Part shown: positions 1-13,403 of the stretch, in pieces
How positions within the stretch are numbered: position 1 is the stretch's first letter
Layout: each line of letters opens with the position of its first letter
NCBI GenBank assembly: GCA_903893805.1
Contig: CAITNM010000026.1
Location: forward strand, 2,542 to 66,541
Reading direction: 5' to 3'
DNA length: 64,000 nt
Source: an uncultured Alphaproteobacteria bacterium
Lineage (GTDB): Bacteria; Pseudomonadota; Alphaproteobacteria; Paracaedibacterales; CAITNM01
Made by a program: the position numbers and the translations under genes
The notes under the pieces: model-generated
Told to the model about the DNA's origin: nothing
Seen by the model: only the letters and a program-made list of their open reading frames with translations
Database searches by the model: none

Positions 1-1044
1 CGCAACGGTAGTTTTGCCTGCTCCTCCTACCCCCACAAGAGCAACAGTTTGAATGCCATCTTGTTTTTTAAGTTTCATCTCAATCTGATCTATAATCTCA
101 GAACGATTAAGAAGAAGCGAATGCGCAGGGAGCCTTAAATCAGATCGGAAAGAAGTGCCTTCATTATTTTGATTCCAAGAAAAAATTAAAAAAGCACCAC
201 AAAGCCCCGTAACAGCCAATATAATTGCGGTAAGATAGCTTGCCTTTATTTGGCTCATAAAATTTTTTTCTAATTGTTTTTCAGGTAAAGCAACCTCTTG
301 CTGCGTAGAGCCTAAATGTATTGTTTTATATTTTTCTTTAAATTCTGCAGCGACCTTGTTGATATCAAGATGTGGAAGAAGTTTTTTAAGAATTATAAAA
401 AACGAAAAATAATAATCCTCATGTTTTGTACAATTGATGATTTCAAAATCGACAAACTGTTTAGGAATTTCCTGATGATCTTTTTGCAAAAGAAAAAGGA
501 TTTTATTTGAACTATATTTGTGCAGAAAAGAAGAAGTTTCTGCTTCGGACATGGTTTTGGATAAAACAAATATCACATAAGCTTCTGCTTTTTTTTGTAC
601 AGTACGTGATATCGTAATGCCTGCAAGATTTAAATGTGATTTAAGATGGACAGCAAAAGAGTCTGTATCTTTCTCATGGAGTAAAAAGCAAAGATTGTTT
701 TCTTGATTTAATCTTGAAATATCTTTTAGATTTTTTTCAAAAACAGCTTCAACTCGTAAGAGAGCGTAATATTTTCTTAAAAGAAAAACTTTATCGGGGA
801 ATACTTCAATGAAATCGATAATTCCTTCGCGTGTATTCGCTCCACTCTTAGACATGATGTTACGAATATGTGTTTCGACTGTTCTTGAGTTAATAGATAG
901 AAGATAGGCTATTTTGCTTGTTCTTCTTGCACTCAAAATGCACGCAATCACATCAATTTCGCGAGCTGTAAAATGAATATTGCCGATCATCGATAAATGC
1001 TTCAAGTAGAAGTTTTGAGAGAAGAGAATTTGCATTTCTTGCAT
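1..1044 (-). CDS. LuxR-type HTH / TIR-like / TM / NB-ARC (STAND) protein, 3'-truncated by the window edge
   Basis: Hand-translated open frame of 348 codons from ATG 1044, absent from the ORF track because it has no stop in the window. LuxR HTH: FTAREIDVIACILSARRTSKIAYLLSINSRTVETHIRNIMSK. Hydrophobic segment: YLTAIILAVTGLCGAFLIFSW. Then LLNRSEIIDQIEMKLK...TVALVGVGGAGKTTVA (NB-ARC P-loop). Confidence 0.85.
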   Translation of the reverse strand, partial: MQEMQILFSQNFYLKHLSMIGNIHFTAREIDVIACILSARRTSKIAYLLSINSRTVETHIRNIMSKSGANTREGIIDFIEVFPDKVFLLRKYYALLRVEAVFEKNLKDISRLNQENNLCFLLHEKDTDSFAVHLKSHLNLAGITISRTVQKKAEAYVIFVLSKTMSEAETSSFLHKYSSNKILFLLQKDHQEIPKQFVDFEIINCTKHEDYYFSFFIILKKLLPHLDINKVAAEFKEKYKTIHLGSTQQEVALPEKQLEKNFMSQIKASYLTAIILAVTGLCGAFLIFSWNQNNEGTSFRSDLRLPAHSLLLNRSEIIDQIEMKLKKQDGIQTVALVGVGGAGKTTVA

Positions 1045-1240
1045 AAAATAGGGCCTCAGATTTGTTAATTATTTGTGATTTCCATGGAATATCTTTATAG
1101 GATTTAAAGAAAACAAAGTTCTTCTAACCCATTGATATCTACGTATTTATTACGTAGATGTGTGCAATTTATAAAAGAAAAATACAAGCCAAACAAGCTT
1201 TGTTTCAGCGAACCTATTCCTCATAAAGAACATTCTAAAG

Positions 1241-1267
1241 AAATATCCGTATGTTTCACGGATGTTT
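1241..1267. promoter_or_regulatory. Imperfect inverted repeat (candidate operator) between the regulator and the lasso precursors
   Basis: aaatatccgt-atgtttc-acggatgttt: 10-bp arms with 1 mismatch, in the divergent intergenic region. Confidence 0.3.
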
Positions 1268-1382
1268 TTAGCTCTTCAAAACTGAGAGTATTCCCCCAGA
1301 ACCTTAGTCGCTATCCCTCTCTTTCGGATTGAGGTTCTTAAATTTAACTAAGTAGTTTGAGAGGTACATTAAGGAGAAAGAA

Positions 1383-1535
1383 ATGAACGTCACGGAAATT
1401 GAAATTGAAAAAGAAGATGCAGAAATTTGCTCTGAATTCATTATCTCATTAGAAGACAGTGCTTCTACTTTAACTCAAGGACCTTTTGGTAAATTTTCTG
1501 AAGGGCACGGAAGACTTTATGGTGGTGGTTTTTAA
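1383..1535 (+). CDS. Lasso peptide precursor A1 (50 aa); core GPFGKFSEGHGRLYGGGF
   Basis: MNVTEIEIEKEDAEICSEFIISLEDSASTLTQ|GPFGKFSEGHGRLYGGGF. SD aaggag upstream; Thr at -2, Gly1, Glu8; lies upstream of the B/C/D genes. Below the ORF-track length cutoff. Confidence 0.92.
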   Translation: MNVTEIEIEKEDAEICSEFIISLEDSASTLTQGPFGKFSEGHGRLYGGGF

Positions 1536-1586
1536 CCCAATCAAAATAAGGACTTAATGAATAATTTTAAAATTAGGAGATAGAAA

Positions 1587-1733
1587 ATGGGTCTTATTGC
1601 AATTGAAAAAGATCAATTAGATACAGAAGTTCAGGATGATTTTGTTGTGGAATTGGAAGAAAGCGCCTCTGCCCTGACTCAGGGAGTGGGTCAATTTAAG
1701 GGAGAAGGACATAGCTACCACAGATTATGGTAA
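1587..1733 (+). CDS. Lasso peptide precursor A2 (48 aa); core GVGQFKGEGHSYHRLW
   Basis: MGLIAIEKDQLDTEVQDDFVVELEESASALTQ|GVGQFKGEGHSYHRLW. SD aggag upstream; same 32-aa leader length as A1; Thr-2, Gly1, Glu8. Confidence 0.92.
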   Translation: MGLIAIEKDQLDTEVQDDFVVELEESASALTQGVGQFKGEGHSYHRLW

Positions 1734-1755
1734 ATAATTTGATTAAATAAAGAAA

Positions 1756-1790
1756 AGAGACATCATCCTTAATCAAAAAATGATGTCTCT
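1756..1790 (+). terminator. Stem-loop between the precursor genes and the maturation genes
   Basis: Perfect 11-bp inverted repeat agagacatcat / atgatgtctct with a 13-nt loop; no U-tract. Confidence 0.6.
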
Positions 1791-1815
1791 ACTACTAAAC
1801 CTATGAGGATAGAGT

Positions 1816-2517
1816 ATGTATTACCATCTTAATGATCACATTTATGTTACTCGGTTTCGAGATGAATTTATTGTTTTGGATACAAAAAAAGATAAATATA
1901 CCATTTATCTAAAACAGCTTTCAGAATTACTAAGTACAGTTTTTGAAAAAAAAATTTCTTCTGAAAACAAATCCATTGTTAAAAAACTATTAAATGACAA
2001 TGTTATCGTGGCAAAAGATACTCCTTATCCTTTTCATATAAGCATGAACCTTACATCTACTGGGGTATCAAATGCAGATTGGCGCTTACCCTTAAATACT
2101 AAAAAAATTAAAATCAACCCTACTGTTTTGAATGCTCTTTTTACCCTTATAAAAATTAATTTTTATATAAAAGCTAATGGCTTATATTCGGCAATTCACC
2201 TAATTAAAAGATCTAAAAAAAATCAGTCAAAATATACTGTTCCGCAAGAAGAAGATCTTATAAACCTAGCAAACATAGTTAATAAAGCATGCTTGATATA
2301 CCCAACTAGGACAAAATGCTTAGAGTGGGCCATGACCTTTGTTTTGCTGGCTTTAAAACGAAAATGGAAATGTAACCTTGAGATTGGGGTTCAAAATTAT
2401 CCTTTTTTTGCTCATGCATGGGTTGAGTGTGCTGGAAAAGTCGTTATGGATTCACAAGATTTAAGGCAAGGATTAGCTGTGATTTTGAATGAACCTTTTA
2501 GAAAGCTAAAAATATGA
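1816..2517 (+). CDS. Lasso peptide B protein, fused RRE plus transglutaminase-like leader protease (McjB-like)
   Basis: N-terminal RRE-like FRDEFIVLDTKKDKYTI; C-terminal catalytic motifs KCLEWA...LEIGVQNYPFFAHAWVECAGKVVMD (Cys-His-Asp). Confidence 0.92.
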   Translation: MYYHLNDHIYVTRFRDEFIVLDTKKDKYTIYLKQLSELLSTVFEKKISSENKSIVKKLLNDNVIVAKDTPYPFHISMNLTSTGVSNADWRLPLNTKKIKINPTVLNALFTLIKINFYIKANGLYSAIHLIKRSKKNQSKYTVPQEEDLINLANIVNKACLIYPTRTKCLEWAMTFVLLALKRKWKCNLEIGVQNYPFFAHAWVECAGKVVMDSQDLRQGLAVILNEPFRKLKI

Positions 2518-4309
2518 TATATGCAGGGTACATTCACTTTAATGGTGCACAAGATAAAATTAATAAGCTTATAACCGCTATTAATTCGTTAATTCCCACA
2601 AATGCGAAGGTTATAATAAAAAATTCTCTTGTTCTGTGTTATGGCAAAATTTCAAATGAACAAGATATGGATGATATTTGGGAAAATGATACTTCTCTTT
2701 TACTAGGACGCGTCTTTGACAAGAATCATAACGGCTCATTTAAAAAAGAAGATTTTAAAAATTACGCTGATTTATCAAAAAAAGCTGTCTTGGAAAAAAT
2801 TTGGGGTAAGTATGTCTATATTAATTTAAACAACAGCACGCAATTATTTGAAATTGTTCTTGACTCAACTGGACAGCTTCCTTTTTTTATTATCCTTTCC
2901 CGGATGGAAACATTTTATTTTCGTCCGATATAGAAGTTATTTTTAAAGTCCTTTCGCAGAAGCCAGAATATAACCTGGAATATCTATGTTCTTATATTGT
3001 GCATGGTACCAGTAGCTCAATTCAAACGCCTTTTAAGAATATTTATGAGCTACCTCCGGCATGTAGTCTGCAGTTAACAAAAACCAAAAGAACAACAACT
3101 GCTTTTTGGGATCCGCTCAACTCTTACAAAACTTCGAAAAATCAAAAAAAGGACGCTGTAGATGTATTGCAATCCACTTTAAAACCATGGATTGCTCCCT
3201 ATAAGGATATATGTGTCAGTCTTTCAGGTGGGCTTGATTCTTCTGCTCTTGTTTATTGCTTGAAAGATCTTGTGAGGAAAGATCAGTCGTTAAAAGCTTT
3301 AAATTACTTTCACTCTCAAATTCAATCTTCTAACGAATTAGTGCACGCACGCAAAGTTTGTAAAGAGACAAATATTGAACTTATTGAAATTGACGCCTCT
3401 CATTCTTTACCATTTGATCCTCCACATCGAAACCTTCCCCTTATGCCCAATAAACCTTTTCCCGGATTAGTAAGTTTAAGGTGGCTAGAAACTATATTTG
3501 ATAATATTCCACAGACATCTTCTTATACTTTTTTAAGTGGGCATGGAAGTGATCATATATTTATGCGTCCCCCTTCCAAAAAGTCTGTTACTGATTATTT
3601 TCTCGAAAAGGGATTTAAGGGACTTGAAAAAGAATTAAAAAATATTACCCAATTTTACCGCGATCCCATGTTTGCAATTGCTAAAGAAAACTTATTAAGT
3701 TTAATATCTTATTTTTTTGCATCAGATAAAGGGAAAAAGCCTCTTAATAAGACTAATGATGAAACTCCAAACTGGATTAAACAAGAACTACTTCACAAGG
3801 CTTCTCCTAACTATGTTCATCCCATATATGAAGATTTACCAAGAAAAATTATACCAGGAAAATATGATCAGATTGATAATCTATACGAGGGCATTAACTC
3901 TATTCATGTAGAGTTAATGGATCAAATTAGCCCAACTCACTACCCCTTTCTTTATGAGCCAGTTGTTGAGTTTGCCCTTTCTTTTCCAACCTATGAACTC
4001 TTTGATAATGGATATGATCGCTATCCACTAAGAAAAGCTGTTGGAGATCGTTTTAATACAGAGACGGTTTGGAGACGAGATAAAAGCCAAACCACAGGAT
4101 TATTTCAGTTAGGTATTAAACAAAATTTGGAATACATCTTAGAAATTTGTTTAGAGGGGTACTTTGTAAAACAAGGACTCGTTAATAAAGAAGGTCTGCA
4201 TAGAACAATAACTCTTATTGGAAATGGGGATACAAAGCATCTATGGCCTTTTATGTATCTGGCTTCTGTTGAGATTTTCTTAAAGCTTTGGAATGAGAAA
4301 AACTTATGA
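2514..4309 (+). CDS. Lasso cyclase C (asparagine synthetase-like), split by a 1-nt frameshift at the T7 run 2882-2888
   Basis: ORFs 2514..2933 and 2999..4309 join into about 598 aa if one T is added (GQLPFFYYPFPDGNILFSSDIEVIFK...IVHG). ATP-binding SLSGGLDSS; SGHGSDHIF; RYPLRKAV; RRDK. Confidence 0.88.
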
Positions 4310-6072
4310 ACATGAAAATGAACCAGAGAAAGTACTTTAAGTGTATTGGAGAAATTTTCTTTACTACGTTTAAGGATACCAAACTGCGTCTGAATTTTTT
4401 TTCCTCTCTCTTACTTTTAGGGGTTGGAATATTTGCAAATATACTAATACCTATTTTATTAAAAAAAATTGTGGAGCTTTTCTCTTCTCCTAGCAATGCA
4501 ACACTTTCATTGATTTTACTAAGCTATGGCGTGATCTGGATGATCAGTCATTCATCTACGCATCTGAGAGCATTACTAACTCACAGAATTGAACAGCGTA
4601 TTAATTATATTTTAGGAATAAAAGTTATTTCTCACCTTTACAGTCTTCCTCAGAGTTATTTTCTTAATCAAAAACCCGGTGCATTAACAAACATAATTAG
4701 AAGAGCACAACAACATGTTCCCTCGATTGTAATAGGTATATTTTTTCATGTTTTACCAATAGTCATTGAATTTTTGGTTGCTATCATTCTTATCTCAAGT
4801 CTTTATTCATCTCTCTATAGCTCCTTAATAGCTGTCACTTTAATCATTTTCGTGATCTACACTTTCTACTCTATGCATGTAGTTTTAAAACATCGTGAGC
4901 ATGCAAATGAAATAGATAAAAATGCTGATGGTGTTATAGCTGATTGGATCTCTAATTATGAGGCTATTAAGGTTTTTGGAAACCAAGATTTAGCAATTAA
5001 AACGTGCAAAAAAGAGCTAAAAAAACGAGAAATCGCAGAAATTTCATTTGTAACAAAATTTAATATTGTTCATTTAGGACAAACATTAATTTTAGGAATA
5101 GGCCTTACAGCTCTCACCTATTTTGTTGGACAAGGTGTTTTAAGGGGAGAGTTAACAACCGGAGATTTTGTTTTATTTAACGGGTATGTCCTGCAATTTA
5201 TTATTCCAATGAGTGTTTTAGGTCACGTTACACAAGAAATAAAAAAAGCTCTTGTCGATATGAAAGGAATAATGGAATTGTTATTGACGGAAAGCAATGT
5301 CAAAGAAATATCATGTCCTATTCATTTATCAGGATCTCGCTTTCAAATTCACTTTAAAAACGTATCCTTTAAATACAATGAACACCACATTTTTGATAAT
5401 GTGTCATTTAAAATAAATACAGGTGAAACCGTACTCATTGTAGGCCAAACAGGTATTGGAAAATCTACAATCGCCAAGCTTCTTTTAAGATTATACGACC
5501 CTACAAAAGGTCAAATCTTTATCAATCAAGTAAATATAAAACAGCTTTCTTTTCAATCTCTATATGAAACAGTCGGATTGGTACCCCAAGAAGCTTATTT
5601 ATTGAACGATACAGTTAAGAACAATCTTCTTTTTGCAAAACCAGAAGCTTCCTCTCTTGAGATTGAAAGCGCTTTAGACAACGCAATGCTTTTAGGTTTT
5701 ATAAATAAACTCCCTCAGGGAATTAACACGATTGTTGGCGATCGTGGTTTGAAGTTATCTGGTGGAGAAAAACAACGCCTTTCACTTGCACGTATTTTTC
5801 TTAAAAAACCTAAAATTTGTATTTTTGATGAAAGTACAGCCGCTCTTGATGAAAATACTGGCCTCATTATTCAAAACAATATAGAAGCAAATTTACGTGA
5901 AATGACAAAAATTATCATTACTCACCGGCCATCTCTTATTCATAAGGCTAATGCGGTTATCCATCTTGATAAGATGTTCACTTATTCGAAAATACCTTCA
6001 AATAGTTTGCAAAAGAAGGTACCACATTTCAATTCTAAAAATGGAGAAAATCATGCGTACAACACATTTTAA
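4306..6072 (+). CDS. Lasso peptide exporter D, ABCB half-transporter (TMD plus NBD)
   Basis: Multiple TM helices; Walker A GQTGIGKST, signature LSGGEKQR, Walker B CIFDES; ATGA overlap with C. Confidence 0.88.
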   Translation: MNMKMNQRKYFKCIGEIFFTTFKDTKLRLNFFSSLLLLGVGIFANILIPILLKKIVELFSSPSNATLSLILLSYGVIWMISHSSTHLRALLTHRIEQRINYILGIKVISHLYSLPQSYFLNQKPGALTNIIRRAQQHVPSIVIGIFFHVLPIVIEFLVAIILISSLYSSLYSSLIAVTLIIFVIYTFYSMHVVLKHREHANEIDKNADGVIADWISNYEAIKVFGNQDLAIKTCKKELKKREIAEISFVTKFNIVHLGQTLILGIGLTALTYFVGQGVLRGELTTGDFVLFNGYVLQFIIPMSVLGHVTQEIKKALVDMKGIMELLLTESNVKEISCPIHLSGSRFQIHFKNVSFKYNEHHIFDNVSFKINTGETVLIVGQTGIGKSTIAKLLLRLYDPTKGQIFINQVNIKQLSFQSLYETVGLVPQEAYLLNDTVKNNLLFAKPEASSLEIESALDNAMLLGFINKLPQGINTIVGDRGLKLSGGEKQRLSLARIFLKKPKICIFDESTAALDENTGLIIQNNIEANLREMTKIIITHRPSLIHKANAVIHLDKMFTYSKIPSNSLQKKVPHFNSKNGENHAYNTF

Positions 6073-6162
6073 CAGATGTTCAAACCCAAATATTTACTTA
6101 AAAAACAAATAACATTAAAAATGAGAATTTTGTCTGACTGCAAACCCAAAAGAAAGAAAGCT

Positions 6163-8382
6163 ATGTTGCGAAGAATTTGGCAAATTGTACCGTTGTTATG
6201 TACTGGAGTTTTTATATCAGAAGCTTATTCCTCTGATAGAGACCCAGGCATGTTCAAGCCTCCTTGCTATTATAGGGTATTTATACAAGCTATATACGAT
6301 CAAACTGAGCTTTTGGCTAAGATTGGGCCTAGGTTAGATACTCACACTATAAGTGACACTGAGTTAGATGAATTGCTTGTTGCACATTTGTACGCAAGTA
6401 AAGTAGCACAAATAAAACAAAAAATTATGGGGAAACTTAGGGCTAGAATAGCTTTCCTTGAGAGAGAAGCTGATTCTGAGGATAAGAAAGCTTTATTACA
6501 AAGGATTTTAGGGGTACTAACAGGTGCAGGCGGAGTAGCTGCTGGTGGAGTTGCTATGGCTATGTTGCCACTTGGTGTTGGTGATGTTATAGGACCTGCA
6601 CTCATCTTTGGTGGAGTACTCGGCATCAAAGGAGAGCTAGATAATACTCTCAAAGGTTCTTCTCCAGAGGTAAAAAAATTAAGAACAGAGATAGAACTCT
6701 TAGAAGTAGAAGAACAATGTTATCTAGAAGGATTGAGAACCGAAGAAGTCAGTTCTTTTGAGGAAGCCTATGTTAAGAAGAAAGCAAAAATAGGTCTAAC
6801 AAGGCTGCAACAGGCTATAGAAACAAACTTGCTTGATTTGCGCATGCCAGGAAATCCTTACGCTTTTATTTCTAGAGAGTTTTTAGCGCAAGCTTTGTGC
6901 TTACCTATTACTCCCAAAGTGCTATTATCTTCAGACCATGACGCAAGCCTTTTTGCCCTTGGGAATCGTTTTGATCAAGATCCTTTTTTCAGGGTATTTG
7001 ATGCTCCCGTAAAAGAAGCTCTTCGCTCTATAGTATTAAGGATTGCAGCCGATTCTGTCGTGCCAGATGATACCTCTGTTTCCTTAAGAGGGAGATATTC
7101 TTTTCATGGCAGAATTCCTGGCTGCGGTAAAACTGAAGCAGCCAAGCAAATAGCAAGGTTTCTTAAACTTCCATACCATATTGTTACTTTGAGAGATGTG
7201 ACTGAATTAAATGTACAAAACCTTGAAGGCATTAACTTTTATAACCCAGAACCCAATGTAGGATGGTTATTATCTCCTTTGTTAACCCCTGATGAGTCTG
7301 GAAGAACCCATACTAATGCTATTCTAATTATAGATGAAATCGATAAGATCTTAGAAAATATCGGTGCAGCAGGGCCTGCCTTAAATTTTTTACCGCAATA
7401 TTTAGAATCTGGGACAGTTGCAGTAAATAGTCCTTATTTTAGAGATCTTATAAGAATAAATCGTATGACGATTATCTTGACCGGTAATAAGCCGCTTACT
7501 CACGCCGCTGTGCTTTCAAGACTTACTCGCTCAATAGAATTCCCTGCTTTTACTATTGCCCAGATGATGCCAATTTTAAAAGCACATCTTAAAGCACTAA
7601 AAGAGGCTAGGAGGATTCCAGCAGAGTTTTTACTGTCTATTGAACTGCCAACTCTAGAGCACCCCTTTAGGATAACTGCGGATATGAATTTAGCCTCTCT
7701 ACACGCGGAATATGGTGCCGGAGTCATTTATACACCTGCACAACCTATAGAAATACCAGTAGGACCTCCTGCAGAAGAACTACCTATGGATGACGCTAAT
7801 GGATTCTCTATTAGGACTGCCAAAGCAGCTCTTGAAGGAGTAATGGAAATATTTAAGGCAAGCCTTATTCTAAGATCTCAAGCTAGCTTTACCCGTGGAT
7901 TAGAGGCGATACAAGCAAACAATAGAGATGCAGCGCTTCACGCTTACATAGAGGCTGCTATTGGAGGACATGCAGAAGCTGCTTGTAAGCTAGGAGCATT
8001 ACTCAAGGCAGCACCTGCTACAGAAACGTACGCAAAGAAATGGTACATGCGAGGGTGGGATCGGGGATCTTTAAAAGCAGCTTACGATCTTGCACTAACA
8101 TTAAAGGACACCGAGATTGATAATGCAATAAGTTGGGCCCAAAGAGCAGCGGATGTGCGCTCAGGGGTACCATATTCAACTGAAGAAATTGTAACTCAGA
8201 GAATCTCATCTTACTTATTGGGAGAGCTATTTGAAGGAGACGGACAATCAGAGTCAGCAAAGTTTTGGTTTATTCAAGCGGCACAAAAAGGACATCCCTT
8301 TGCTCAACGTATGGCAGACCGCTTAATGTTGCGTGAGCAAAAAGTAAAGTCTGGCAAACTAATGTTTGCTGATGAAAGTTAA
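6163..8382 (+). CDS. Signal-peptide protein with an AAA+ ATPase domain and C-terminal Sel1-like repeats
   Basis: Likely start MLRRIWQIVPLLCTGVFISEAYS (track starts at 6076). Gly-rich hydrophobic hairpin; Walker A GRIPGCGKT, Walker B ILIIDEIDK, sensor-1 LTGN, Arg finger VLSR; Sel1-like AAIGGHAEAACKLG and QAAQKGHPFAQ. Confidence 0.7.
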   Translation: MLRRIWQIVPLLCTGVFISEAYSSDRDPGMFKPPCYYRVFIQAIYDQTELLAKIGPRLDTHTISDTELDELLVAHLYASKVAQIKQKIMGKLRARIAFLEREADSEDKKALLQRILGVLTGAGGVAAGGVAMAMLPLGVGDVIGPALIFGGVLGIKGELDNTLKGSSPEVKKLRTEIELLEVEEQCYLEGLRTEEVSSFEEAYVKKKAKIGLTRLQQAIETNLLDLRMPGNPYAFISREFLAQALCLPITPKVLLSSDHDASLFALGNRFDQDPFFRVFDAPVKEALRSIVLRIAADSVVPDDTSVSLRGRYSFHGRIPGCGKTEAAKQIARFLKLPYHIVTLRDVTELNVQNLEGINFYNPEPNVGWLLSPLLTPDESGRTHTNAILIIDEIDKILENIGAAGPALNFLPQYLESGTVAVNSPYFRDLIRINRMTIILTGNKPLTHAAVLSRLTRSIEFPAFTIAQMMPILKAHLKALKEARRIPAEFLLSIELPTLEHPFRITADMNLASLHAEYGAGVIYTPAQPIEIPVGPPAEELPMDDANGFSIRTAKAALEGVMEIFKASLILRSQASFTRGLEAIQANNRDAALHAYIEAAIGGHAEAACKLGALLKAAPATETYAKKWYMRGWDRGSLKAAYDLALTLKDTEIDNAISWAQRAADVRSGVPYSTEEIVTQRISSYLLGELFEGDGQSESAKFWFIQAAQKGHPFAQRMADRLMLREQKVKSGKLMFADES

Positions 8383-8405
8383 TAGTAACTGTATAGGAGT
8401 TTAAA

Positions 8406-9257
8406 ATGAGATTATTACATATTGTTTTTTATAGAGGATTATTTTTCTTTACCCTGCCCGTATGTCTCTGGGCAGCAGTGCATAGCGAAGTTAGCTTAGC
8501 TTATCACAGTACGGCAAATAGTGCTTATAATGGATGCAAAGTTACTTTCCAAGTATATGAGGGAACTGAAGAAGCAAAAAAGCGAGTATGGACGGGACAG
8601 TTAGGCTTTTACGGAGAAGGGTTACCCTTGGTAAACACTTCCATATTATCTCGTAAACAAGTTGATCCCGAAATAAAATTAAGATATGTCTCTAATGATG
8701 CACGCTACAAAGCTTCGTTCGAAACAGTCCCTCCCCTCCGTTCAATGTCTCCTGACGGATTTACTTATGAAGAAACTGCGTGCATGGAAGATAGCATTAT
8801 TGCGGGCAATATGATCACATGGAGTCTTAATAATCACGCTATAAGTGTTCAAGATGTTGTTGACACAGTAAATAACTTAAAAGACGGAGGACGTTTTCCG
8901 AAGTACAAACTTTATGGATACGATTGGAATGATAACGTTGCAAACTGTGTGACATTTTCTTGTCGTTTCTTAAGAGCTTTTGGAGTTAATATTGATGCGT
9001 GCACAGAACTCACACCATGGCTAAAACCAACAAGAGGTTCAGGGTTGTCTTGGGCGGGCTATTATATATTCGCTTTTGGTTGGACACATGATCACGTACG
9101 TTTGCGTAACGCAGTATTATCCATCGCTCAGTATCATAATAATGTTAGGTGGAATAGAGGAGATGTACAGAGTGGTGCTCCAAGATTTGCACTTAAGAGT
9201 ATTGAAGATGTGCTGCCAGGAGCAGATATAAGCTCTGTTAGAGCTTATATACAATGA
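8406..9257 (+). CDS. Secreted hypothetical protein with a possible papain-like/NlpC-P60 catalytic Cys
   Basis: Signal-like N-terminus; KYKLYGYDWNDNVANCVTFSCRFL and candidate His residues (AYHS, NNHA, THDHV). Confidence 0.55.
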   Translation: MRLLHIVFYRGLFFFTLPVCLWAAVHSEVSLAYHSTANSAYNGCKVTFQVYEGTEEAKKRVWTGQLGFYGEGLPLVNTSILSRKQVDPEIKLRYVSNDARYKASFETVPPLRSMSPDGFTYEETACMEDSIIAGNMITWSLNNHAISVQDVVDTVNNLKDGGRFPKYKLYGYDWNDNVANCVTFSCRFLRAFGVNIDACTELTPWLKPTRGSGLSWAGYYIFAFGWTHDHVRLRNAVLSIAQYHNNVRWNRGDVQSGAPRFALKSIEDVLPGADISSVRAYIQ

Positions 9258-9272
9258 TGAAGGAGATCTATT

Positions 9273-10223
9273 ATGAATAGTTTTGTCAAAATTTTCATTG
9301 CAGGAGGAGTTTTTTGTTTATTTCTCTTCAACTCCAAAGCAGTATCGTGTGGGGAAGAGTTTGTTTTTCCGTTTGCTGACGATGACCTTGTAAGTCAAAA
9401 TAGTCGCCAAGTTTTAGAGATGCAACCAGTAAGAAATTCTTCTTCATCATCTACTCTTCCTAGTCGTTGTGCTTTTCCAATCGATACTGCAACTGCTTTA
9501 CCAGAAGCATCAGCAATTTTAGCTGAGAGAAATAAGGTACGATTCCCCATACCTCAAGCCGCTCTCGCTGGTTTTCTGCCTTTACTAGAGATGGGGGAAG
9601 ATGTTATTTTTGAAGCCTTTAGGTTTTCTGCATCTTGTAGTTCTGAGTTTAAATTTAAGAGATGTGAGAGAGATGGTAGCGTCTTTTTTATCAATCCTGG
9701 ATGCAATATATCGCTTGAAGATAACTATAACAGCTATCAATATTTTATTGTAGCTGCGAATCGAGAAGAAGCTGCACATGCATTGAACGAAGTAGAAAAA
9801 TTTAAAAGAGAAAAATGTCTTACCTTACTTAACCAAGTAAAGATAGTATTATTTAATCTATACGATAGCAAAATGCCGACAACTCCTTTCAACGATCTAT
9901 ATAGCATAGTGCCCAAGAACAACATCGTTAGTTTTATTTTAGATGAAAATTTTATGGGTAAGTGGGTCCTTCTTAAAGATTTATGCCTTAATTTTCATTG
10001 GAAGAATTGGCCTGGGATAAGAATTACAGTCCCTTTATCAAATCGTAGATTATTTACACAAGAAATACTTAGTGATGTGTATAAAAGAGTATTAAGACAG
10101 TGGCATTCGATAATAGATGCAATAGATCTTGGTATTTTTGAAAATGAAAGTGAAGCTGCAGAGGGTATGTTAGATGTTATTGGAAATCTTCCACCATCTG
10201 CAAGCAGGTGGAATATTTTCTAG
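9273..10223 (+). CDS. Secreted hypothetical protein
   Basis: 316-aa ORF, SD aaggag, hydrophobic signal-like N-terminus; no family recognised. Confidence 0.6.
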   Translation: MNSFVKIFIAGGVFCLFLFNSKAVSCGEEFVFPFADDDLVSQNSRQVLEMQPVRNSSSSSTLPSRCAFPIDTATALPEASAILAERNKVRFPIPQAALAGFLPLLEMGEDVIFEAFRFSASCSSEFKFKRCERDGSVFFINPGCNISLEDNYNSYQYFIVAANREEAAHALNEVEKFKREKCLTLLNQVKIVLFNLYDSKMPTTPFNDLYSIVPKNNIVSFILDENFMGKWVLLKDLCLNFHWKNWPGIRITVPLSNRRLFTQEILSDVYKRVLRQWHSIIDAIDLGIFENESEAAEGMLDVIGNLPPSASRWNIF

Positions 10224-10981
10224 AATCTGTGATCTAACGTAAAACCACGGGGATTATATAGATTGGACAGCAATTTTGCTATAAACAAGAGGGGGGAGGG
10301 TTCTTTGGTTACTGCACGGTCTAGGATGTCTCGAGCATCTAAGCCATCAGGTGCTTTGTCGGCTAAATCCCATTTATGGGGCAAGGTTGTGGGCAAATTG
10401 ACGATTTTAACTTCAACAATTTTACCTTCTTGATTACTCTGATTTTCCAGAATAGTTGTAATCTTAGTGGCTGCATTAAGTCCCGGCTGATCATGATCTG
10501 GCCAAATCGTAACAGACCGATCTTTTAAAGTGCTCCAATCAGACTTTTGAACAGCACCACTTCCACCAGACCATGTCACTACTGCGTGATCTTTGAATAG
10601 CTCTCTCGCTGCTTCGCAGGTTTTTTCGCCCTCAACGATCAGCACAGGTGCATTCGGCTTTGCTTTAAGTTGATCCAATCCATACAAAGGACGATCATTA
10701 CCAAATCCTTGCCATCGCCACTGTTTTTCACCCTTGTCATTTTGACAATAGGTAAGCGTAGGCGTGATTTTATGACCGCTCTTATCCTCTAACCGCACCA
10801 CATACCCTAAGACATTGCTATCTGCCTCTTTGTAGGCATATCGAGCAACCTCAATTTTTCCTTTAAGCATCTAACTGAGGCTTTTTTCTGCTTTTAAATC
10901 AACAGGCGTTGCAAGAGCAGGGAACAGAGGTGTCCAGTCCTATTTAGATTGGTTGATTTTTACGATCCGTAATATGATCAT
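10220..10981 (-). pseudogene. Toprim-domain primase-like gene of mobile elements, with two in-frame TAG stops
   Basis: Toprim motifs PVLIVEGEKT...VTWSGGS...IWPDHDQPG. The frame extends 5' of the called start 10870 through TAG at 10871-73 and 10940-42 (K*DWTPLFP...SLS*M) to an ATG at 10981, 1 nt after the PLD stop. Confidence 0.7.
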
Positions 10982-10982
10982 A

Positions 10983-11609
10983 TCATTTGGGTTTGCCAAG
11001 TGTTTTTTGAGAATGGAAGGATTTGGAAACGTTCCAACGTTCCTCAAAGTACACGGTATATCTCTTGGCGACTTCTTGAGCGTTAATAAACACGAGATTT
11101 TCTGCATTGTTAAACTCTGCTGAGTGTGACCAATTGTATGAGCCTGTTATTGTTTGTAGGTTGTCTATGATCAAGACCTTATTGTGAGCAATTTTGACTG
11201 AATGATCGAACCTCACGTCTAAGCGGTTGTTAAGCAAGATTTGAATGACCTCTTTTGAGTACTTTTGATATTGTTGGCTGTGATCAAGAACAATACGAAC
11301 GTTTACACCTCTTTTTTTAGCCTGGATCAACGCTTGAGTAATAGGCTTGCTTGTAAAAGAATACCCCAACAGCAAAATGCTTGATTTGGAGTTATCGATG
11401 GATTTTATTACCTTAGGCAAACAAGACTGACCGGGAGTGAAGCAAACATCCAATGATACAGGCACTGCTGCTATTGAAACTTTTGGAGTAGAGGAGAATG
11501 GAATGTTTTCGATAAAGAGTGGATAAGACAAGAGCCCAGCGACAAAAATACTAACCGCTACTATGAGTTTGTTAGGTTTAAATCTATATCCTTGTTTTTT
11601 GTGCTTCAT
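10983..11609 (-). CDS. Phospholipase D-family nuclease (single HKD motif; Nuc/rickettsial Pld-like)
   Basis: AHNKVLIIDN...TGSYNWSHSAEFNNAEN; CFTP and YSFTS motifs; N-terminal anchor. Start probably 11609 (track starts at 11651). Confidence 0.9.
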   Translation of the reverse strand: MKHKKQGYRFKPNKLIVAVSIFVAGLLSYPLFIENIPFSSTPKVSIAAVPVSLDVCFTPGQSCLPKVIKSIDNSKSSILLLGYSFTSKPITQALIQAKKRGVNVRIVLDHSQQYQKYSKEVIQILLNNRLDVRFDHSVKIAHNKVLIIDNLQTITGSYNWSHSAEFNNAENLVFINAQEVAKRYTVYFEERWNVSKSFHSQKTLGKPK

Positions 11610-11754
11610 GATCTTTAAGGAGGCGGATGCCGCGTTGTTTAAAATTCCCAAGAGAGTTTGTGACGAGCATTATGGTTGTTACTGAGAGCATTTCATTCTG
11701 TGTTTTGAGAACCTGAGCGAGTTGGCTTGTCTCGATATTTTTTTGCAGTATCAT
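11584..11754 (-). CDS. Small hypothetical ORF (56 aa)
   Basis: MILQKNIETSQLAQVLKTQNEMLSV...; weak SD-like sequence upstream; overlaps the PLD start. Confidence 0.3.
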   Translation of the reverse strand: MILQKNIETSQLAQVLKTQNEMLSVTTIMLVTNSLGNFKQRGIRLLKDHEAQKTRI

Positions 11755-11914
11755 TCGTTACTCGCCCCTAGAGAACACACAAACATAAAAACTAAAAAAC
11801 AACCCATAAGATAAAAGAAAGAGAGTCTAAATCTCGTTCCCTAACGTGTACTTGCTCAACTGGATTGGATCATATTGCGATAGTGTTATCAAGTGTCATT
11901 TTGCCAATTTTGCT

Positions 11915-11952
11915 AAATGCGCACTTATGCGGTGTGACAAAGTGCGTTACAC
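11915..11952 (-). other. MOBQ-family oriT-like site
   Basis: Minus strand: GTGTAAC-gcacttt-GTCACAC (inverted repeat), then CGCA, then TAAGTGCG|CATT. This matches the IR plus TAAGTGCG|CCCT architecture of RSF1010/pSC101/pSK41-type oriTs. Confidence 0.65.
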
Positions 11953-11988
11953 TTTTTACACCACTTATGTTACCTACGGCGTTTATTT

Positions 11989-12282
11989 ATGACATCAAGA
12001 ATGCAAGAGTATCGTGACAAAAAAAGACAAGAAGGATTTGTACAAGTAAGAGTTTGAGTGCCAGAAGAACACGAATATTTTATCAAGAATATCGCTAAAG
12101 AGTGCAGACCAAGTGTCCCACTCAAAATCCCCGAGCGTTATGGCAGACCAGCTAAGCCATCACAAATCCGTCTTGCTCAAGCTCTTGCGGCCTCCAGGGG
12201 TAAAGAGCCACCTGAACACCTCTATGATTACCACATTAGTTTGTCAGCTTGGATGTGGGGGCTCGGTGGCAGACCGAAATGA
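11989..12282 (+). pseudogene. Small RHH/MobC- or DUF3018-like gene with an in-frame TGA
   Basis: MTSRMQEYRDKKRQEGFVQVRV*VPEEHEYFIK; TGA at 12055-57 falls where Trp of a V-x-V-W-V-P motif is expected. Confidence 0.6.
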
Positions 12283-12357
12283 TTGTTAAGCTGAGAAGCT
12301 TTCTTCATTAAATTCCTTTATTTCATATTTATTTTTTTCTCAATGCGCCTCCATATT

Positions 12358-12531
12358 TGCCGTATTTACCGTCCAACCGTCCACAACCGCAGTTTTGCTA
12401 ATGTTTTTTGGACGAGTGGACGAATCATTGTCTGAGGTGGACGGTATCGCAGATGTATTGATGGACGAATACTGAAGGCTTGAATGTCCTTATTTACCTA
12501 ACCAATGGACGGCTGGACGGTAAATACGGCA
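12358..12531. repeat. 26-bp inverted repeat enclosing TGGACG iteron-like hexamers
   Basis: Arms 12358-12383 and 12506-12531 with 1 mismatch. TGGACG at 12409, 12417, 12438, 12462, 12506, 12514; CGTCCA at 12370, 12378. Confidence 0.85.
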
Positions 12532-12854
12532 TTTTCAAGGAGGCTAGAAGAAACATTTATATTATATCGTTTCCACGATTCTTCAAATATGTGTTTATCA
12601 AACCCTTTTCTTTGTATGCCGCCAATTTCCATGTTCTTCGTATGGATTTGATAGGGAGAAAGAAGCCTACTTAACTGACGCGGGGTAATTCTTTTATCGA
12701 TCCCCCGAAAATTATACACGGACCAGGGACTTTCTTCGTCCTCACAAAGATAGCTAATTAGGTCAACGGATTCACGCACAGGATCTAAATCCAATCGTAC
12801 GCACGTACATAACTCAAGAATTTTTAAATATAGGAAACTCGTTAGGCTAGTCAA
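12498..12854 (-). pseudogene. DUF3631-like C-terminal fragment of a phage-satellite/ICE replication protein
   Basis: DLISYLCEDEESPWSVYN...ITPRQLSRLLSPYQIHTKNMEIGGIQRKGF...FEESWKRY; N-terminal part missing. Confidence 0.65.
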
Positions 12855-12969
12855 AACTAGGTGCTTGTAAAAACGGTTGTTTTATTCGTAAATGATTTTT
12901 TTTTGTCTATGAAAAAAGGAATTTCAGTTGAAATGGCACTTCAGAAATTTTTTGTGTCTTCTTCCATAA

Positions 12970-12988
12970 GTATACCCAGGGTATACCC
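12970..12988. repeat. GTATACCC direct repeat with 11-bp period; integrase arm-site-like
   Basis: gtataccc-agg-gtataccc, about 50 bp from the tRNA-fMet 3' end. Confidence 0.5.
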
Positions 12989-13036
12989 GACAGAATTATA
13001 GCAGAAGAAGGTGATGGCTGAAAGCCTTACGTGAAT

Positions 13037-13113
<77 letters not shown>

Positions 13114-13220
13114 ACAATGTAAATAATATATAGCTGTAACCTTAGAAAAATGCAAGATATTTTCCTGGACAATTTTCCATCTATAAACTAAAACAAGAAT
13201 GGTTACCGAAAGGTGATTTT

Positions 13221-13297
13221 AGGAGTGTAGCTCAATTGGCTAGAGCGTCGGTCTCCAAAACCGAAGGTTGTGGGTTCGAGCCCCTCCACTCCTGCCA
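13221..13297 (+). tRNA. tRNA-Trp (CCA)
   Basis: Cloverleaf with TCGGT CT CCA AA ACCGA, GTTCGAG T-loop and encoded CCA; upstream of secE. Confidence 0.97.
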
Positions 13298-13403
13298 TGT
13301 TAGTTTTCTATAGACATTTTCCTAACAATCTTATACAAATTGCGGATGAGTCTGTGTTAGACAGACAAAATGCATTTTGTTGTTCTTTTCAAGGAAATAC
13401 TTT

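Follow-up and report, generated by a model that had tools for sequence, protein, structure and literature searches.

A probable orphan MOBQ (Ti-type) origin of transfer in the chromosome of an uncultured alphaproteobacterium

A short motif in the chromosome of an uncultured alphaproteobacterium resembles the origins of transfer (oriTs) of MOBQ plasmids, and it raises the questions of whether it is such a site, from which element it came and which DNA it could move. We analysed a 64,000-nt stretch of DNA around it, henceforth the window. The minus strand at 11952-11916 reads GTGTAAC (11952-11946), GCACTTT, GTCACAC (11938-11932), C, GCA, TAAGTGCG (11927-11920) and CATT (11919-11916), letter for letter as given in a preliminary description of this DNA, which had called it a MOBQ-type oriT without a relaxase. 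The site also lies, as described there, between divergent mobile-element genes, namely a PLD nuclease gene (10983-11651, minus strand) and an RHH gene (11989-12282, plus strand). From sequence comparison, we consider 11982-11890 (minus strand) very probably to be an orphan MOBQ (Ti-type) oriT of a family of TraA-relaxase-mobilised elements circulating in this Holosporales-like genus. Its parts are as follows.

11890-11982, minus strand: whole putative oriT unit, conserved, about 95 nt, comprising promoter-side box, inverted repeat, nick region and post-nick block
11971-11982, minus strand: ACGCCGTAGGTA box, common to all copies
11929-11964, minus strand: conserved inverted repeat, 16 bp (left arm 11964-11950, loop 11949-11945, right arm 11944-11929)
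11919-11931, minus strand: nick region CGCATAAGTGCG^C (the caret marks the predicted nick), a 13-mer identical in the pSK41 oriT
11890-11919, minus strand: conserved post-nick block CATTTAGCAAAATTGGCAAAATGACACTTG, near-invariant in relaxase-linked and relaxase-less copies

The predicted nick, placed by comparison with R1162 and pSK41, falls between G11920 and C11919 of the minus strand. We compared this region with the published MOBQ nick consensus, NWACCNNTAAGTGCGCCCTYNN (PMC3832669): TAAGTGCGC is exact and 9 of the 12 core bases fit. The site thus follows the (T/A)AAGTGCG^CCCT-like pattern of MOBQ-type nick regions up to the nick and deviates after it, where CAT differs from the CCC of substrates with documented cleavage. 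The preliminary description had given a 13-nt identity to pSK41, and the plasmid sequence, read directly, bears this out: CGCATAAGTGCGC matches the pSK41 nick region at 13 of 13 positions. The pSK41 oriT itself reads GCGAACG-GA-ACGTTCGC ATAAGTGCG CCCT and lies directly upstream of, and divergent from, the MobA/MobL gene nes. Within the window, the 9-mer TAAGTGCGC occurs twice against 0.43 expected, a count that 7 of 100 shuffles reach and that is not significant alone, and the 13-mer occurs once (allowing at most one mismatch) against 0.04 expected. A blastn search of 72,556 plasmids with the 151 bp spanning the site returned no match, nor did a literature search for the exact 12-mer, and an Rfam scan of 11400-13400 gave nothing beyond two tRNAs.

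We searched a 451-bp query around the site against 14 genomes of the genus, fetched 20 loci and aligned 17 related copies. The core proved to be near-invariant and present in 13 of the 14 genomes, in 24 copies, often several per genome. The mean column identity of the 17-copy alignment is 88%, with 41 invariant columns, and its near-invariant block is CGCAT(A/C)AGTGCGCATTTAGCAAAAT..GACACTTG (also written CGCAT(A/C)AGTGCGCATTTAGCAAAAT..TGCAAAATGACACTTG). Copies are 83-93% identical to each other in the core versus 71-81% in the adjoining RHH coding sequence.

The core copies occur in two contexts. Class A consists of six loci, where intact MobA/MobL relaxase-helicase-primase ORFs of 1360-1700 aa are preceded, at a distance of 50-100 nt, by the core in antisense orientation. 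The ORFs start with MAIYHLSHG.VSRSTGRSSVQSAAY (MAIYHLSHG..SRSTGRS..AAY) and combine a PF03389 MobA_MobL domain (1.7e-38), an AAA_30/UvrD-type helicase and a C-terminal DUF6371/Toprim primase domain. They match the solved structures of NES (4HT4, 2e-14) and R1162 MobA (2NS6, 5e-7), and their nearest plasmid relatives, at 33-35% identity, are annotated as "Ti-type conjugative transfer relaxase TraA". On the far side of the core are a TraC-like ORF, a TraD-like ORF (PF06412) and a homolog of the PLD gene of the window, so that the layout is traA <- oriT -> traC traD. Class B comprises all other copies together with the left half of the window copy. Here the core is longer by ~30 nt, which include a long inverted repeat, and is located at the end of small integrative elements, which consist of a P4-type integrase, an AlpA-like HTH protein, a 113-aa protein, a 740-aa Toprim-DUF3631 primase, iterons and an RHH gene. 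Intact relatives of this class carry these genes and the oriT only, without a relaxase, and deletion derivatives retain only the integrase, the primase tail, iterons and oriT. The RHH gene in these relatives holds the position taken by the relaxase gene in class A loci.

Outside the genus, we used a profile search to retrieve relaxase homologs from other genera and families of the order, relatives whose public records are metagenome-assembled genomes. Upstream of these genes there is a short inverted repeat (4-5 bp) with a 4-nt loop, followed by the nick motif (A/G)T(A/C/T)(A/T)GTGCG CA(C/A/T)T, also given as ATAAGTGCG^CA(C/A/T)T. The assignment to the MOBQ type is supported by this shared core, which adjoins intact MobA_MobL (Ti-type TraA-like) relaxase genes both within the genus and elsewhere in the order. 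The comparison also changes the reading of the bases after the nick. The preliminary description had suggested that the two post-nick mismatches reflect decay; this is contradicted by the copies next to intact relaxases, in which CATT is invariant, and by its resemblance to the CACT of Ti-type plasmids. CATT is the native sequence of this family.

Two further ways of accounting for the motif, a chance resemblance or the end of a transposon or MITE-like repeat, might be entertained from the insignificance of the 9-mer alone and from the recurrence of a ~118-bp unit several times per genome. They are next to negligible in our estimate and are effectively refuted by the comparison, since conservation extends to other families, always beside relaxases. 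The MITE or IS-end reading of the multi-copy unit was rejected because of its surroundings: every stand-alone copy lies among remnants of primase, iterons and integrase, and there are no transposases or target duplications.

We assessed which inverted repeat belongs to the predicted oriT. The preliminary description had proposed GTGTAAC/GTCACAC. These arms pair at 6 of 7 positions in the window; pairing across the 17 copies (67.9% of cells) does not exceed that of shuffles, and the shuffle comparison rules out this candidate as a conserved repeat. It is the longer repeat, 11964-11950/11944-11929, that covaries instead: 85.3% of cells are paired in the 17-copy alignment and six pairs show compensatory changes, giving a covariation score that none of 500 shuffles reaches and that is also above all slid controls. 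Variants in other subfamilies are GATGTGTAAAAATG/CATTTTTACACATC and GCTATAGAAAA/TTTTCTATAGC. The window copy of the long repeat has one bulge and one mismatch, and it is the minimum free energy hairpin of the DNA strand by a modest margin (-9.1 kcal/mol, z = -1.71, 12 of 200 shuffles). A third repeat, CGCACTT/AAGTGCG, is perfect in the window (11946-11940/11926-11920) and highly paired among copies, with a single compensatory case; because it is nearly invariant, it cannot be distinguished from plain sequence conservation and is uninformative.

The arm of the long repeat ends at 11929, 9 nt before the predicted nick, which is the spacing found in pSK41 and in Ti-type plasmids and places an inverted repeat directly 5' of the nick region (~8-9 nt), as in MOBQ-type oriTs. 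The short repeats of relaxase-linked copies stand at the same distance from the nick, and those found across the order have compensatory variants (GCGC/GCGC, GCAC/GTGC and GCGGT/ACCGC). The upstream, antisense linkage to a MobA/MobL gene that also characterises MOBQ-type oriTs was found in the copies of relatives; the window keeps only a C-terminal fragment of such a gene.

A ACGCCGTAGGCA box 5' of the core is present in all copies and abuts the TATAAT-like -10 hexamer of the relaxase gene in relaxase-linked copies, and the post-nick block (11890-11919) contains GCAAAAT twice. Together with the position of the core between divergent genes in every copy, these features would suit an alternative in which the conserved block is only a divergent promoter or operator, bound for example by RHH or TraC/TraD-like proteins, and its likeness to a nick site is incidental. 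We regard this as very improbable. Over 10-13 conserved nt, the site agrees with a nick consensus that is particular to MOBQ, the family of the neighbouring relaxase; the covarying inverted repeat stands at the canonical 9-nt distance from the nick, and a sigma-70 promoter scan scored no consensus promoter in the oriT core. The conservation of the block could nevertheless be owed to divergent promoters or operators; promoter and oriT roles are not exclusive. The post-nick block is probably an accessory-protein or relaxase site, a promoter for the traC-side operon, or both.

The putative oriT is part of accessory DNA beside an initiator tRNA-Met, just upstream of tRNA-Trp, secE, nusG, rplKAJL and rpoBC. 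Leftward from the tRNA, the order is an integrase-primase fusion, iterons, an RHH pseudogene, the motif, a traC/traD fusion, the PLD gene and a Toprim/DUF6371 fragment (10220-10870); further left are two orphan ORFs, an AAA ATPase and then a lasso-peptide cluster that reaches the contig start. The two orphan ORFs (8406-10223; 283 and 316 aa) have hydrophobic N-termini and no Pfam or NCBIfam match.

13037-13113, minus strand: initiator tRNA-Met, 3' end facing the element
12498-12854, minus strand: integrase-primase fusion (PF12307), the last ~12 integrase codons (RLDLDPVRES) joined to the last ~75 primase codons
12368-12470, unstranded: CCGTCCA/TGGACG iteron array, the same iterons being conserved in relatives
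11989-12282, plus strand: RHH (MazE-like/DUF3018-like) gene of the relaxase-less element (PF11455, E = 4e-4; read-through translation)
11584-11754, minus strand: deletion fusion of a TraC-like 5' end and a TraD-like 3' end, 56 codons, a remnant of accessory genes
10983-11651, minus strand: PLD/Nuc-like nuclease (PF13091, E = 6e-28; NucT models)
10220-10951, minus strand: C-terminal DUF6371/Toprim remnant of a TraA-type relaxase-helicase-primase (Pfam matches and tblastn)

On the tRNA side, the 12498-12854 fusion matches residues 663-737 of the Toprim-DUF3631 primase by tblastn and is a deletion remnant; the same kind of integrase-primase deletion is seen in relatives. The iteron array is probably the replication origin of a small integrative element, because relatives have the same iterons at the corresponding place, between the oriT and the 3' end of the primase gene. 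The RHH gene is a pseudogene in the window, with TGG changed to TGA at Trp-23 (12055-12057), and its homologs in relatives are intact 98-aa proteins that have TGG at this codon (MQNYR.KK...G.VQVRVWV). The RHH protein may act in the relaxosome as an accessory factor, or it may be a repressor. The initiator tRNA-Met is the likely integration site, and the same initiator tRNA adjoins an intact-looking element in another genome (G005:C15). No direct repeat of the tRNA-fMet 3' end of at least 14 nt was found on the contig that could serve as an att site; the only other occurrence is the second tRNA copy on contig C34 (at about 47631). Relatives have intact integrases, whereas the integrase in the window is reduced to about 12 codons. 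With neither an integrase nor an att repeat, excision from the window is therefore not possible. Elsewhere in the genome, contig C1 encodes a distant second Toprim-primase homolog (63.8-64.8 kb, 28% identity) and a distant P4-type integrase homolog (28.8-29.9 kb); these may belong to another integrative element, without the oriT core.

The proximity of the hairpin and its conserved tail to the iterons (~400 nt) bears on a further alternative, namely that the block is a single-strand initiation (priming) site or part of a replication origin, recognised by the shared DUF6371/Toprim primase domain. The model for such a site is provided by ssiA and ssiB, which are recognised by the RepB' primase of RSF1010, and relaxase-linked copies and relaxase-less elements do both encode homologous primase domains. 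We consider this reading very improbable: what the mini-elements and the relaxase loci have in common is the core and not the iterons, and a priming site would account neither for the agreement with the nick consensus nor for the constant position and strand of the core with respect to the start of the relaxase.

On the far side of the predicted oriT, the remnants are of another kind. The N-terminus of the 11584-11754 fusion resembles the TraC-like ORF and its C-terminus, FKQRGIRLLKDHE, matches the TraD-like protein of relatives. The PLD protein is 68% identical in amino acid sequence to the PLD encoded beside traD in G001:C24, and this gene follows traC-traD in relaxase-bearing elements. The relaxase remnant (10283-10951 by tblastn) spans 223 aa with 90.6% identity to residues 1146-1368 of the 1579-aa relaxase of G001:C24; it is ~1 kb from the oriT and its orientation is wrong for the ancestral layout.

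Window positions 11850-11888, the traC/traD remnant and the PLD gene match class A loci only, and positions 11932-12282 (long repeat and RHH) match class B loci only, which places a crossover inside the shared core. By these matches, the window copy is a chimera: the 5' half derives from an integrase-primase-iteron-oriT element without a relaxase, the 3' half from an element with one. The source of the 5' half, a small element of integrase, primase, iterons, RHH gene and oriT, never had a relaxase. The crossover could have arisen by homologous recombination or by relaxase-mediated recombination between oriTs, for which the pWBG749 system is a precedent (PMC4652767). The integrase, primase, RHH, traC/traD and relaxase genes are all deleted or broken in the window.

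We searched the genome of the window (1.57 Mb, 47 contigs) for the proteins that would act on the predicted oriT, of which it has a single core copy. We found no PF03389 or PF03432 domain, no match to a relaxase profile and no tblastn match to the relaxase domain. The preliminary statement that there is no relaxase therefore stands for the relaxase domain and needs a qualifier, because the 223-aa C-terminal relaxase fragment remains nearby. The genome also has no TraG/TraD coupling protein (T4CP), VirB4 or F-type TraC, so that none of the four marker families of helper relaxase, coupling protein and mating channel was detected in this genome. As the assembly is fragmented, a relaxase plasmid could have been missed, and the absence of a helper is provisional. 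Across the genus, relaxases are present in 6 or 7 genomes, TraD/TraG-type coupling proteins in 7 of 14 and F-type TraC in 3 of 14; VirB4-type type IV secretion systems (T4SS) are absent from all genus genomes searched. Six of the 13 core-bearing genomes, including that of the window, have oriT copies and no relaxase.

If the site is an oriT, its use would resemble that of R1162 and pSK41. By this analogy, a relaxase would bind the inverted repeat (11964-11929) and cut the minus strand at the predicted nick (G11920/C11919), 9 nt further on; it would stay on the 5' end and leave the cell by way of a TraD/TraG coupling protein and a type IV system, F-type or other. We derived the polarity from the nick placed by analogy with pSK41 and R1162 and from an assumed 5'-to-3' transfer of the nicked strand. 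DNA of lower coordinate would then enter the recipient first, beginning with the PLD gene and the relaxase fragment and followed by the lasso cluster, and the rpoBC side would enter last. Intact elements have their relaxase gene on the 5' side of the predicted nick, so that it would enter last, as in pSK41. Because the element genes in the window are deleted or broken, the site could act only with a cognate relaxase, coupling protein and mating channel supplied in trans, and transfer from this chromosomal origin would be Hfr-like only. With all surrounding element genes decayed, the site may be a relic that has not yet diverged.

The preliminary description had suggested that the island, including the lasso cluster, was or is mobilisable. 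The predicted polarity would indeed send the lasso cluster early, but the oriT belongs to a decayed small integrative element and cannot be assigned with confidence to a lasso island. None of the other 13 genomes of the genus contains a DNA homolog of the lasso region (window 1-10200), which is therefore strain-specific accessory DNA; it is tied to the oriT-bearing element by adjacency only. This puts a lasso-peptide region in the leading direction of a potential Hfr-like origin that no gene in the genome of the window can fire. The lasso cluster has two precursor ORFs (L001, 3924-4076 and 4128-4274), a cyclase apparently in two pieces (2514-2933 and 2999-4309) and a LuxR-NB-ARC-TPR regulator of 1106 aa that extends past the window start.

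We compared the site and its relatives with known systems. The oriT of pSK41, pGO1 and pLW1043 (NES, MOBQ, Staphylococcus aureus) has the same 13-mer and a repeat that likewise ends 9 nt before the nick, and it is directly upstream of, and antisense to, a MobA/MobL gene whose product, NES, is matched by the relaxases of the relatives here. It differs in its post-nick CCCT (CATT here) and in the repeat sequence; furthermore, the host here is an alphaproteobacterium, the relaxase of relatives is a 1360-1700-aa relaxase-helicase-primase fusion, and the window is without a relaxase. The Ti-type arrangement traA-oriT-traC/traD (pTiC58 class), which we read in Aquicella lusitana plasmid 5 and Gluconobacter oxydans pGOX4, has the same gene order, with a 7-bp repeat and then ATAAGCGCG CACT at the same position and on the same strand, where ATAAGTGCG CATT is found here. 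The relaxase identity to this class is only 33-35%, the repeats differ, and the elements here add a PLD nuclease and a C-terminal primase domain. The RSF1010/R1162 oriT (MobA) shares the nick core TAAGTGCG and a repeat ~8 nt upstream, and its MobA is a detectable homolog (2NS6, 5e-7). RSF1010 MobA is likewise fused to a primase. This system differs in its post-nick CCCT and in its gene organisation (mobA/mobB/mobC).

The closest parallel in lifestyle is provided by oriT mimics, such as the staphylococcal plasmids that depend on pWBG749, which are oriT-only elements resembling the oriT of a co-circulating conjugative element; in the genus studied here, the core is common to relaxase-bearing and relaxase-less elements. 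Plasmids and chromosomal sites with an oriT only are documented in E. coli and S. aureus, with a precedent for recombination between oriT copies (PMC4652767; PMC10123127, PMC8136818). Unlike the mimics, the carriers here are chromosomal tRNA-integrating elements (P4-type integrase, AlpA, Toprim-DUF3631 primase and iterons) in uncultured endosymbiont-like bacteria, known here from sequence alone. To our knowledge, relaxase-less oriT-only elements have so far been documented mainly in staphylococci and enterobacteria. RAGE (Rickettsiales amplified genetic elements) combine an F-type T4SS with TraA_Ti and TraD_Ti. The genus resembles them in having F-type TraC, TraD/TraG-type coupling proteins and TraA_Ti-like relaxases; the relaxase, coupling protein and F-T4SS were here scored genome by genome, and not as one element. 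Searches of a literature library pairing RAGE with oriT, and Finniella (Holosporales, Paracaedibacteraceae) with conjugative, found nothing.

We tentatively propose a model, in which our confidence falls slightly short of even, whereby tiny replicative integrative elements of protist-endosymbiont-like Paracaedibacteraceae (P4-type integrase, Toprim-DUF3631 primase, iterons and RHH) carry only the oriT of resident TraA_Ti/F-T4SS (RAGE-like) elements. They would hitch-hike on these, shrink to integrase-iteron-oriT forms and shuffle with their helpers at oriT. If so, the window keeps one oriT-by-oriT junction, and the site would be the first sequence-level definition of an oriT for this class of Rickettsiales/Holosporales elements. 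The comparison provides a concrete candidate oriT (inverted repeat, ATAAGTGCG^CATT and a 30-nt conserved tail) for TraA_Ti relaxases of uncultured Holosporales/Paracaedibacteraceae, intracellular lineages in which gene flow has so far mostly been inferred from gene content. It suggests that an oriT can outlive all its partner genes in a chromosome. The more interesting by-product is the abundance of oriT-only integrative elements in an endosymbiont-like genus, with up to 3-6 copies of such relaxase-less elements per 1.5-Mb genome.

Some loci of relatives are reduced or rearranged. Minimal forms, consisting of an integrase, the last 49 primase codons, iterons and an oriT, occur at L020 (G003:C18, 1528-3168) and L010 (G002:C4, ~97.2 kb). 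They suggest nested parasitism, in which replication and transfer are both supplied in trans. Tandem oriT pairs 360-420 bp apart are present at L010 (G002:C4, 85.5-86.3 kb) and L011 (G005:C15, 27.3-28.1 kb), and G002:C4 has a third oriT copy, inverted, 11 kb from the tandem pair. These tandem and inverted copies may reflect accretion or inversion through recombination between oriT copies. Past the second oriT of L011 there are large repeated ORFs (331 and 388 aa, HQMGQWYSGPDKINYF...) and a small 140-aa partner, resembling polymorphic toxin/immunity cargo adjoining the element.
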